Positions 14,331 to 15,371 of a stretch of 28,808 nucleotides of DNA are shown one piece after another. The translations under genes and the position numbers were made by a program. Positions within the stretch are counted from its first letter, which is position 1; each line of letters begins with the position of its first letter. The notes under the pieces are model-generated. The model was not told the origin of the DNA, did not search any database, and was given only the letters and a program-made list of their open reading frames with translations. The stretch comes from Escherichia coli (GTDB taxonomy: Bacteria > Pseudomonadota > Gammaproteobacteria > Enterobacterales > Enterobacteriaceae): the NCBI RefSeq assembly GCF_003334315.1, contig NZ_QOWR01000061.1; one strand, 5' to 3'.

Positions 14331-15233
14331 TTATACAAAAAGTGACAAAAAAGATCGGGTTTGATCACAGTCAGGGATCCCGGCTCGTCCACCGGGACGC
14401 GTGCATTTCAACGCCGCTACACCGCTGGCGAAGCGGACTGACTCCGCTAAATCCCCACCTGTTGCCAGCGCCACCGCCAATGCGCCGTGAAAAACATCAC
14501 CCGCACCTGTGGTATCTACCACATCAACTTTGAAGGCCGGTTGATGTTGACGCCCGCCATTTTCCAGCCAGTCACAGCCTGCGCTGCCCTGGGTCACATA
14601 GACATGACCATTTGTGAGCGTTTGTGCCTGTTTTAGCGCACTGGCCATCTCTTTCACGCCCGTTAAGCGCGCCAGACCCGGTTCTGAAAAGGCCGCATGA
14701 TCGCTTAATGCCACCAGCTCGCTGATATCCTGCGGCGTAATATCACCGTCCAGAACGGTCATCACGCCCGCCTGCCGGGCCAGAGTGAAGGCTTTTTTAG
14801 CGCCGTCGTGCCAGCGTACATCTGCCAGCACAACATCCCACTGAGAGAAATCAATTTCCTCCAACCACTCTGCGTCAGGCAGCAGGTCCGGGCTGGGGTA
14901 GTTAATGATTATCCGCTCGCCTGTGGCATCCACCATGATGGCGGATTGCGATGATTTCGCCTGGTTATACCGTTTGGTGTAACGGGTGTTAACGCCCCAG
15001 GATTCCAGCTCTGCCAGCAGGCTGTTGCCCGTGTCGTCATCACCTACGCGACCAATAAAATCAACCTGCGCCCCCAGCCTTGCCGCCGCAACCGCTGCCG
15101 TCGCCGCTGGCCCGCCACCAACTTCCGTATAATTTCTCGCCACGTATTTACCGCTCTCCGTCGGTAACCCTTCCACGTAATAGATGCGATCCATCACGGT
15201 TATACCTACACAAGCAACACGAATCATGGTCAT
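14331..15233 (-). CDS. yihV: 6-deoxy-6-sulfofructose kinase (pfkB/ribokinase family)
   Basis: About 300-aa ORF with the ribokinase-family signature (VVDTTGAGDVFHGALA); synteny in the SQ cluster. Confidence 0.85.
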   Translation of the reverse strand: MTMIRVACVGITVMDRIYYVEGLPTESGKYVARNYTEVGGGPAATAAVAAARLGAQVDFIGRVGDDDTGNSLLAELESWGVNTRYTKRYNQAKSSQSAIMVDATGERIIINYPSPDLLPDAEWLEEIDFSQWDVVLADVRWHDGAKKAFTLARQAGVMTVLDGDITPQDISELVALSDHAAFSEPGLARLTGVKEMASALKQAQTLTNGHVYVTQGSAGCDWLENGGRQHQPAFKVDVVDTTGAGDVFHGALAVALATGGDLAESVRFASGVAALKCTRPGGRAGIPDCDQTRSFLSLFV

Positions 15234-15280
15234 TCCTTAAACATTTTGGGATGCGTTCATTTTAATTTCACCAATTGTTT

Positions 15281-15371
15281 AAAAAGTGACGGCTGTCAAT
15301 TTTTTGACTATAAATTACAAATACGATCAAAAACAGACAATCAAAGCGTGTCATAAATGACAAAAAGTGAC
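15281..15371. promoter_or_regulatory. Divergent yihV / yihUTS control region with candidate CsqR (DeoR-type) operators
   Basis: Palindromes TGTCAA-TTTT-TTGACT (15294..15309) and TGTCAT-AA-ATGACA (15349..15362); direct repeats AAAAAGTGAC at 15281 and 15362, with a third copy at 14337 just upstream of yihW. Confidence 0.45.

Follow-up and report, generated by a model that had tools for sequence, protein, structure and literature searches.

The three exact copies of AAAAAGTGAC in the yih control regions of Escherichia coli are probably the best-matching members of a larger array of 11-bp AAAAA-NN-GACA elements, most likely serving as half-sites for CsqR (YihW). This DeoR-family repressor is encoded next to the array and would most likely contact the half-sites through its winged-helix domain, making the locus a plausible operator array of a known repressor at its known targets. 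The elements, their conservation and their positions come directly from the sequence analysis of a stretch of 28,808 nucleotides (the window), which carries the E. coli csqR(yihW)-yihV / yihU locus, with csqR/yihW at 13512-14297 (-), yihV at 14331-15227 (-) and yihU at 15395-16291 (+). The gene context given in the earlier note was correct: yihV and yihU are divergent, and copy 1 falls within the terminal codons of yihV, 40 bp upstream of the yihW ATG.

The yihW transcription start published at -27/-28 from the ATG (PMC5816610) corresponds to window position ~14324, and TATAAAAT (14328-14335, -), invariant in orthologues, is its putative -10 element. The published yihV start (U00096.2 4071737) corresponds to position 15252, and TAAAAT (15259-15264, -), likewise invariant in orthologues, is its predicted -10 element. 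Both promoters have good -10 elements without a recognisable -35. A scan of 14250-15450 found neither sigma-70 -35/-10 pairs (16-18 bp spacing, at least 9/12 matches) nor terminators in the control regions, and scanning the whole window gave no Rfam match at the locus.

As the earlier note had claimed, the window holds three copies of AAAAAGTGAC and no more, at 14337-14346 (copy 1), 15281-15290 (copy 2) and 15362-15371 (copy 3), all on the + strand; copies 1 and 3 share an extension, the identical 13-mer ACAAAAAGTGACA. Both palindromes were also located where they had been placed. Palindrome 1, TGTCAATTTTTTGACT (TGTCAA-TTTT-TTGACT; 15294-15309), has 5/6 arm complementarity and a perfect core, GTCAA-TTTT-TTGAC; its right arm reads TTGACG in K-12. 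Palindrome 2, TGTCATAAATGACA (TGTCAT-AA-ATGACA; 15349-15362), is a perfect 6+2+6 palindrome. The expected count of AAAAAGTGAC was 0.06, a figure valid for one pre-chosen word only. Third-order Markov simulations predicted about 15 different 10-mers with at least three occurrences, and 15 were found in the window; at least one three-copy 10-mer fell inside 1.1 kb in 20 of 300 simulations (~7%). With all words allowed for, the cluster probability is thus ~0.07, so that the copy count by itself is only marginal. The non-random signal lies in conservation and position, not in copy number.

The repeat is more aptly treated as an 11-bp AAAAA-NN-GACA unit present in five to seven copies than as a three-copy 10-mer. 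Tallying AAAAANNGACA gave five exact copies, one with one mismatch and one with two. The five exact matches in the window compare with 0.43 expected, none of 100 shuffles reached five, and four of the five fall in the two CsqR-bound regions; TGACA by itself was not enriched in the window (55 versus 52 expected). The element is repeated at short spacing, in inverted and direct orientation as would suit a dimer or higher oligomer, the GAC/GTC cores of palindrome 1 lying 11 bp apart, centre to centre, and the elements designated E' and E below lying 10 bp apart. Across 56 orthologous loci, 152 exact matches were found in 17.5 kb of control DNA and two in 311 kb of flanking DNA, an enrichment with some circularity in it, the motif having been taken from E. 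coli and the orthologous sites being related by descent. Substitutions among the matches were mainly at NN (GT, AT, TT, CA, AC, TA, AA, AG and GG). Exact matches were confined to the two control regions in the 18-kb loci of Citrobacter, Rahnella and Enterobacter, and the motif was also found in a 65%-diverged E. coli short cassette, in Pantoea and in Dongshaea marina (order Aeromonadales). The elements were conserved together with the regulator across its target promoters, the exceptions being site A in Yersinia and site B in Rahnella and Hafnia. No matches with zero or one mismatch were present in the cassette spacers R/Q, Q/P, P/O and O/ompL.

A fifth exact match, the doubtful site F (AAAAAACGACA; 18460-18470, +), lies in the yihS/yihR spacer, where it serves as the 5' arm in a hairpin or inverted repeat of 35 nt (RNA hairpin of -20.2 kcal/mol, z = -3.4). 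In Citrobacter, Enterobacter and Rahnella this spacer, just 17-18 bp long, is without the element, and that of Pantoea carries AAAAACAGACT. Site F was rejected as a conserved site on account of its absence from the 17-18-bp spacers and its place in a hairpin arm in E. coli.

Copies 1 and 2 had per-base identities of 0.89-1.00 over 56 Enterobacterales loci, except at position 2 of copy 1. Site A (AAAAAGTGACA; 14337-14347, +), which contains copy 1 in the last yihV codons, is located between the yihW -10 element and a CRP-like site, at -13 to -23 of the yihW promoter relative to the published start and with the -10 element assigned from its sequence. Its per-base identity over 56 taxa was 0.73-1.00, the low value being that of position 2 (0.73). 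At copy 1 and its neighbours, third codon positions had a mean identity of 0.87, compared with 0.48 in the remainder of yihV, and no other 13-codon window of yihV exceeded 0.68 synonymous-site identity, so site A is conserved beyond coding constraint. In an unbiased within-genome comparison, it was the element of the yihV/yihW region with the best relatives in the yihU/yihV spacer in about 50 of the 56 genomes. It takes the form ATAAAGTGACA in the 65%-diverged E. coli short cassette and ATAAACTGACA in Dongshaea marina, is weak in Pantoea ananatis and has been lost in Yersinia. The suggestion that this copy serves yihW autoregulation was borne out in part: its position, flanked by the -10 element and the CRP site, fits, but the YihW ChIP-exo dataset (PMC8464067) lists no peak at site A (14337).

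The divergent yihV/yihU control region is dominated by a near-invariant block of 81 bp (15259-15339) that carries sites B, C, D' and D along with the core of the divergent promoters. Its mean identity across Enterobacterales was 0.92, with 54 of 81 positions at 0.95 or above, compared with 0.85 for the first and second codon positions of yihV. As the whole block is invariant, conservation cannot distinguish the elements within it. Site B (AAAAAGTGACG; 15281-15291, +), which contains copy 2, overlaps the yihV -35 region (-29 to -39 relative to the published start) and makes up the left part of a CRP-like site; its identity over 56 loci was 0.89-1.00, the last base excepted. Rahnella (L019, L025, L026 and L031), Hafnia (L055) and Symbiopectobacterium (L052) have GTGAT instead of GTGAC. 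Site C (AAAAATTGACA; 15294-15304, -) is the left arm of palindrome 1 and an exact motif match with an identity of 0.91-1.00, and palindrome 1 is kept as TGTCAATTTTTTGAC in nearly all orthologues. Site D (AAAAACAGACA; 15329-15339, +), a degenerate copy that had been absent from the earlier note's list, matches the motif exactly and appears as AAAAAACGACA, AAAAATAGACA or AAAAAAAGACA in other genera. Twenty base pairs upstream of it lies a putative degenerate element, D' (TATAAATTACA; 15309-15319, +), which resembles E', has TACA in place of GACA and shows an identity of 0.91-1.00 at positions 2-11.

Beyond the block, site E' (CATAAATGACA; 15352-15362, +) has two mismatches to the motif, and site E (AAAAAGTGACA; 15362-15372, +), which contains copy 3, matches it exactly 23-33 bp upstream of the yihU ATG; both coincide with the mapped yihU starts or lie downstream of them. 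In other genera, site E reads AAAAAATGACA, AAAACATGACA, AAACAGTGACA or CGATGTGACA, so that conservation is limited to the TGACA core and its 10-bp phasing. (A/T)GACA is conserved at site E' in 10-bp phase with site E, and of copy 3 only the GACA part persists, as a 10-bp-phased (T/A)GACA direct repeat. Of the two palindromes proposed as operator candidates, palindrome 1 is conserved and palindrome 2 is conserved in its right arm alone. The left arm of palindrome 2 (identity of 0.04-0.66) is missing in Citrobacter, Salmonella, Enterobacter and even E. albertii, and palindrome 2 is Escherichia-specific. Given the putative -10 assignments, sites A, B, E' and E overlap core promoters, as would suit repression.

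CsqR is known from gSELEX, EMSA and AFM to bind both the yihU/yihV spacer and the yihV/yihW region, and it is released by sulfoquinovose, SQ-glycerol and sulforhamnose (PMC8006165, PMC8249747, PMC12608037). All copies lie inside the EMSA fragments (~15160-15497 and ~14240-14547) and the gSELEX-bound spacer, which is evidence at the level of fragments. The supplement of Kaznadzey 2018 gives primers without site sequences, and no CsqR sequence motif was found in the literature searched, outside which lay Shimada et al. 2019 (Microbiology 165:78). Cooperative, polymer-like CsqR-DNA complexes have been reported (PMC8006165, PMC12608037), and these fit a multi-site array. The only base-resolution in vivo datum on CsqR at the locus is a YihW ChIP-exo footprint in the yihU/yihV spacer (4071641-4071681 of U00096.2; PMC8464067, Dataset S4), the strongest YihW peak in the genome, with a signal/noise ratio of 168. 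Mapped via the yihV and yihU start codons of NC_000913.3, with an offset uncertainty of 2 bp, it covers approximately 15308-15350. The peak includes the degenerate site D and the putative site D' but none of the three exact 10-mers, which flank it. Both palindromes fall outside it, save for the last one or two bases of palindrome 1 and perhaps, if the mapping error is at its upper limit, the first two bases of palindrome 2. The claim that the exact repeats are CsqR operators was supported by CsqR binding to both regions and by conservation of the repeats, but the footprint misses every exact copy of AAAAAGTGAC. As for the weaker YihW peaks, the strongest, at glpA (signal/noise 13.7), adjoins AAAAAACGAAC and the third, at ssuE (8.2), adjoins AAAAAAAGAAC, while the rplC peak (8.5) is without such an element. 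Minor gSELEX peaks lie at trxB, yeaC, hyfB and accC.

The position of the footprint invites the reading that the operator is the invariant central segment ATAAATTACAAATAYGATCAAAAACAGACA (~15309-15339), centred on GATC, with the exact AAAAAGTGAC copies making no CsqR contacts and the yihV/yihW region bound via TTTGATC at 14360-14366. The peak centre, at ~15328, indeed falls on GATCAAA, conservation of the segment extends as far as the short cassette, Dongshaea and Chimaeribacter, and TTTGATC is common to the conserved blocks of both control regions, in opposite orientation. However, TTTGATC is not enriched in the window (6 versus 5.1 expected), and its occurrence in the yihV/yihW region coincides with the CRP site reported at -41.5. 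The segment has no dyad beyond GATC and itself holds motif copy D, and it leaves unexplained both the conservation of synonymous positions at site A and the conserved, phased TGACA repeats before yihU. We regard this reading as unlikely.

A further candidate is CRP, which binds fragments of both control regions. A conserved CRP site has been described at -41.5 of the yihW start, and CRP shifts the yihV/yihW fragment as well as the entire yihU/yihV fragment, for which no position was given (PMC5816610). The CRP-like element of the yihW promoter (14354-14375; pattern match at 14360-14375) reads TGTGATCAAACCCGAT on the - strand and TTTGATCACAGTCAGG on the + strand, and TTTGATCACAG within it is invariant in orthologues. 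In the yihU/yihV spacer, copy 2 and the left arm of palindrome 1 (TGTCAA) together form a CRP-like AGTGA-N6-TCAAT sequence (15285-15300), AGTGACGGCTGTCAAT, that matches 7 of 10 CRP core positions; centred on 15292.5, it is 40.5 bp upstream of the yihV start (15252), an arrangement found for copy 2 only. The copies might accordingly be CRP half-sites or promoter elements, copy 2 with TGTCAA being a class II CRP site for yihV and the A-tract with GTGAC a UP-like element with a weak rightward -35. Besides the spacing and the fragment shifts, several observations agree with this. Good -10 elements without a recognisable -35, as in the yihV and yihW promoters, are typical of activator-dependent promoters; the invariant part of site B is GTGA, not GAC, and its GTGAT form in Rahnella, Hafnia and Symbiopectobacterium suits a CRP half-site better than GACA; and a yihU promoter could be built from GTGACG and TATAAA with a 17-bp spacer between them.

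As an account of the whole set of copies, this reading is nevertheless quite unlikely. Matches to the CRP core (TGTGA-N6-TCACA, three mismatches allowed) were not above background in the window (93 versus 95 expected), a chance level that makes the scan uninformative, and the yih genes were not mentioned in the CRP ChIP-exo supplements searched. No acceptable second CRP half accompanies site A, D or E, a GTGA core is missing from sites C (TTGACA) and D (CAGACA), and the published CRP site of the yihV/yihW region adjoins copy 1 rather than lying on it. For copy 2, the CRP reading can hold alongside the CsqR array, as overlapping CRP and CsqR sites. That the 10-mer recurs three times simply by chance in A/T-rich DNA, as the expected number of three-copy 10-mers and the simulated clusters would allow, is extremely improbable and close to refuted by the strong conservation of copies 1 and 2 across genera, synonymous sites included, and by the enrichment of the relaxed motif in exactly the two CsqR-bound regions.

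We thus favor the CsqR half-site array and infer from the sequence that GACA and the A-tract form the contacted motif, that particular copies are the occupied ones and that occupancy occludes the promoters. Sites B (15281) and C (15294, -) face each other, with C also pairing with TTGAC to give palindrome 1, and this group covers the yihV -35 region and the upstream part of the yihU promoter. The three to four elements D', D, E' and E run in the same direction, with approximately helical phasing, across the yihU starts and downstream of them, and site A separates the yihW -10 element from the CRP site. CsqR oligomers could fill the array cooperatively, keeping RNA polymerase off yihV and yihU and, more weakly, off yihW, until sulfoquinovose, SQ-glycerol or sulforhamnose binds the C-terminal domain of CsqR, which would then leave the DNA. 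CRP sites adjoining or overlapping the array may add catabolite control. A more detailed version, to which we give somewhat less than even credence, is that CsqR reads an unusual, bipartite half-site (A5 tract, two free bases, GACA) along a phased array of six to seven elements in the 81-bp block, and that the same element may explain the weak in vivo cross-binding at the GlpR-controlled glpA and at ssuE, a sulfonate utilisation gene.

Sulfoquinovose ranks with the most abundant organosulfur compounds found in nature, and its degradation in E. coli is inducible through CsqR, which acts as the switch. Since CsqR binding at both control regions had already been published, the analysis sharpens a known switch and reveals no new one. 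It adds a testable base-level proposal for CsqR recognition, AAAAA-NN-GACA in five to seven copies, a conservation map in which copies 1 and 2 and palindrome 1 are kept and the left arm of palindrome 2 and the 10-mer of copy 3 are not, and a warning that the single in vivo footprint sits between the exact copies. If confirmed, the motif would leave the current picture of the pathway unchanged and would allow the regulons of CsqR-like regulators to be predicted in other sulfoglycolytic bacteria and sulfoquinovose-inducible promoters to be designed rationally.

The closest known system is the CsqR/E. coli sulfo-EMP (yih) cluster itself, with the same locus, promoters and protein; the publications on CsqR searched describe binding at the level of fragments or peaks, without a sequence motif, and the AAAAA-NN-GACA array is what we infer beyond them. 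At the yihV and yihW promoters alike, a TGTGA-like element ~41 bp upstream of the mapped start recalls class II CRP promoters, a likeness that among the copies is limited to copy 2, copies 1 and 3 not being readable as parts of CRP sites. Other operators described for the DeoR family end in ...RACA half-sites, CGAACA for GlpR and CTAACA for DeoR, and multi-operator arrays are formed by GlpR at glpTQ and glpACB, by DeoR at deoO1/O2/OE and by AgaR. In such arrays, oligomers bind cooperatively to several short A/T-rich ...ACA repeats over divergent promoters, frequently beside a CRP site, and repression is relieved by a sugar or sugar phosphate. The yih array resembles those of GlpR, DeoR and AgaR in its short A/T-rich ...ACA repeats over divergent promoters. 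It differs from them in its half-site, GACA after an A5 tract as opposed to the CGAACA of GlpR and the CTAACA of DeoR, and in its arrangement, which consists of one inverted pair and a run of direct repeats.

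The window is a piece of E. coli chromosome that matches many strains at 100% identity over 13400-16400, and it carries csqR/yihW (13512-14297, minus strand), yihV (14331-15227, minus strand) and yihU (15395-16291, plus strand), beyond which lie yihT, yihS, yihR, yihQ, yihP, yihO and then ompL. The repeat AAAAAGTGAC, which an earlier note had proposed as the operator of the repressor CsqR (YihW), was found exactly three times in the window, always on the plus strand, at 14337, 15281 and 15362 (copies 1, 2 and 3), and the 13-mer ACAAAAAGTGACA is common to copies 1 and 3. Two palindromes proposed as further operator parts were likewise at the places claimed, TGTCAATTTTTTGACT at 15294-15309 (palindrome 1) and TGTCATAAATGACA at 15349-15362 (palindrome 2). 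The copy count by itself is barely significant: 15 different 10-mers are present at least three times in the 28.8 kb, third-order Markov simulations give the same number, a three-copy cluster within 1.1 kb arose in 20 of 300 simulations, and the expectation of 0.06 copies of AAAAAGTGAC is valid only for a word picked beforehand. The real signal is evolutionary.

Sixty yihV loci were retrieved from Enterobacterales, and 56 were aligned. Across these 56 taxa, an 81-bp block of the yihU/yihV spacer (15259-15339), containing copy 2 and palindrome 1, has a mean identity of 0.92, versus 0.85 at codon positions 1 and 2 of yihV, and identity is down to 0.44 at 15340-15356. The block, unusually tightly conserved for promoter-operator DNA, is also kept in Yersinia and Hafnia and partly in one Aeromonadales genome. 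Copy 1 lies within the last yihV codons, where third codon positions average 0.87; their average elsewhere in yihV is 0.48, and the remaining 13-codon windows stay at or below 0.68. At copy 3, conservation is limited to a direct repeat of 10-bp period, (A/T)GACA-N5-TGACA. The left arm of palindrome 2 is unconserved (0.04 to 0.66) and absent even in E. albertii.

Alignment of all GAC-containing elements of the yihV/yihW and yihU/yihV control regions showed that the repeat is better described as an 11-bp family, AAAAA-NN-GACA. Its members are site A at 14337 (AAAAAGTGACA, copy 1), site B at 15281 (AAAAAGTGACG, copy 2), site C at 15294 (AAAAATTGACA, left arm of palindrome 1), site D at 15329 (AAAAACAGACA, missing from the earlier list), site E' at 15352 (CATAAATGACA, two mismatches) and site E at 15362 (AAAAAGTGACA, copy 3), C being on the minus strand and the others on the plus strand. 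Exact matches number five in the window against 0.43 expected (0 of 100 shuffles reach five; the fifth lies at 18460, in the yihS/yihR spacer), and the 56 orthologous loci hold 152 in 17.5 kb of control DNA versus 2 in the remaining 311 kb, enrichment statistics that are partly circular because the motif was taken from E. coli and orthologous sites share a common ancestry. Within 18-kb loci from three genera (Citrobacter, Rahnella and Enterobacter), the two control regions hold all the exact matches. A motif-free test, seeking the 11-mer of the yihV/yihW block with the best three relatives in the yihU/yihV spacer of the same genome, selected site A, exactly or one base off, in about 50 of the 56 taxa. 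The A-tract and GACA are constant and the NN positions are variable (GT, AT, TT, CA, AC, TA, AA, AG, GG); this pattern of tolerated substitutions is that expected of a protein-binding half-site.

Of 5353 E. coli genomes, 1327, or about one in four, carry a short cassette with a roughly 65% identical version of the yihV region (for example, NZ_OZ547136.1 2009748-2017766), comprising genes for a DeoR regulator, a sugar kinase, yihU, an aldolase, an alcohol dehydrogenase and an MFS transporter and adjoining yihLMN. This cassette retains the elements ATAAAGTGACA, AAAACACGACA and AAAAACAGACG as well as the central ATAAATTACAAATA..CTCAAAAACAGAC of the spacer, and in it the TGACA repeats next to yihU are in the reverse orientation. 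Dongshaea marina, which is not a member of the Enterobacterales and has a 68% identical CsqR, retains ATAAACTGACA upstream of csqR.

CsqR, a DeoR-family repressor, binds DNA in the yihU/yihV spacer and upstream of yihW, makes large cooperative complexes on it and dissociates in response to sulfoquinovose, SQ-glycerol and sulforhamnose (PMC8006165, PMC8249747, PMC12608037). The strongest YihW ChIP-exo peak is at 4071641-4071681 with a signal/noise of 168 (PMC8464067); these coordinates are in U00096.2, and NC_000913.3 numbering would put peaks inside yihS and ssuA and not beside the named genes. Mapped via the yihV and yihU start codons, the peak is at 15308-15350 (± 2 bp); the K-12 spacer is of equal length, with six base differences, none within the 10-mer copies. 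The footprint contains site D and D', a degenerate copy 20 bp upstream of D (TATAAATTACA, 15309-15319), but it lies between the exact copies, both palindromes are outside except for the last one or two bases of palindrome 1 and the first two, at the upper mapping limit, of palindrome 2, and the peak list has no YihW peak at site A (PMC8464067). As CsqR operators the three copies are partly supported: they lie within the CsqR-bound fragments but outside this peak. In glucose-grown cells the exact copies may be less occupied, or less well cross-linked, than D' and D; alternatively, the single reported border pair may conceal a longer array. A third possibility, which we consider unlikely, is that the invariant central segment (about 15309-15339) is the real CsqR operator. 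Among the weaker YihW peaks, two of the top three adjoin an A5-N2-GA element, namely, glpA, a GlpR-controlled promoter (signal/noise 13.7; AAAAAACGAAC, NC_000913.3 ~2352621-2352636, L065 222-237), and ssuE, of sulfonate utilisation (8.2; AAAAAAAGAAC, NC_000913.3 ~997534-997577, L064 185-228); the element is absent at the other five weaker peaks, rplC (8.5) included. This suggests weak cross-recognition by CsqR at glpA and ssuE and lends modest independent support to A5-N2-GA being what CsqR recognises.

According to Kaznadzey et al. (PMC5816610), transcription of yihV begins at -25/-27 from the ATG (U00096.2 position 4071737), that of yihW at -27/-28 and that of yihU at several mapped positions; CRP was reported to bind both fragments, and a CRP site to lie at -41.5 relative to the start of yihW transcription. 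Site A occupies about -13 to -23 relative to the yihW start, flanked by the inferred -10 element (TATAAAAT, 14335-14328) on one side and the CRP element on the other, a position that fits the proposed role of copy 1 in yihW autoregulation. Site B occupies about -29 to -39 relative to the yihV start (predicted -10 element TAAAAT, 15264-15259), and E' and E are at or downstream of the yihU starts, immediately before the yihU ribosome-binding site. These positions fit repression; the ChIP-exo footprint fits less well. Three GATC (Dam) sites occur in a 27-bp stretch of the yihW promoter region (14353-14379) and a further one at the centre of the ChIP-exo peak (15325-15328); only those at 14363 and 15325 are conserved across genera.

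The copies could also be CRP sites or promoter elements, since copy 2 and the left arm of palindrome 1 form AGTGA-N6-TCAAT, flanked by A- and T-tracts and centred at 15292.5, 40.5 bp upstream of the yihV start. CRP shifts the fragment (PMC5816610), a sigma-70 scan detected no promoter in either control region, and site B is GTGAT in Rahnella, Hafnia and Symbiopectobacterium, where GAC is lost and the CRP core retained. However, 7/10 CRP core matches are no commoner than chance and copies other than copy 2 cannot be CRP sites, and we regard this explanation as improbable. On the most economical reading, copy 2 may serve both CsqR and CRP, which would then compete at the yihV promoter, and the family as a whole is CsqR's. 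That the copies are a product of chance, as their number alone might suggest, is scarcely credible in view of their conservation.

Other features of the window were also recorded. An inverted repeat or stable RNA hairpin, AACGACAUAUC...GGUAUGUCGUU (z = -3.4, -20.2 kcal/mol), sits in the yihS/yihR spacer (18448-18520); it contains an exact AAAAANNGACA, and no U-run follows it. This spacer is 68 bp long in E. coli versus 17-18 bp in Citrobacter, Enterobacter and Rahnella, and the hairpin DNA therefore looks like an Escherichia-specific insertion. A perfect TGTGATATTTGTCACA (2903-2918; CRP-type core, 0 mismatches) lies between or overlaps the divergent ORFs 2117-2950 (minus strand) and 3144 (plus strand). 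An Rfam SECIS_3 selenocysteine insertion element (3726-3784, plus strand, 80.6 bits) connects ORFs 3144-3731 and 3780-6194, in keeping with a formate dehydrogenase alpha subunit that contains selenocysteine. Finally, a 100-nt direct repeat (9277-9376 and 9715-9814, 73% identical, 438 bp apart) lies in a region (8667-10528) with no ORF of at least 150 amino acids.

What has been observed is the elements themselves, how conserved they are, where they lie with respect to the published starts, and the binding of CsqR and CRP at fragment level. As the probable reading we favor an AAAAA-NN-GACA array that would provide CsqR half-sites through which the promoters are blocked. Each A5-N2-GACA would be the half-site for one winged-helix domain, and dimers would be seated by palindrome 1 (cores 11 bp apart), D'/D and E'/E. 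Sites C, D, E' and E are predicted to lie within about 0.2 turn of one helical face, which would permit the cooperative assembly that AFM and EMSA have revealed. CsqR occupancy would keep RNA polymerase off the yihV and yihU promoters and, more weakly, via the lone site A, off the yihW promoter. The switch itself, CsqR acting on its established targets, is already known, and to it this analysis adds a motif proposed at base level and a map of conservation. Such an array would work like the DeoR-family multi-operator systems GlpR, DeoR and AgaR, and its half-site resembles the ...RACA half-sites of other DeoR-family operators.
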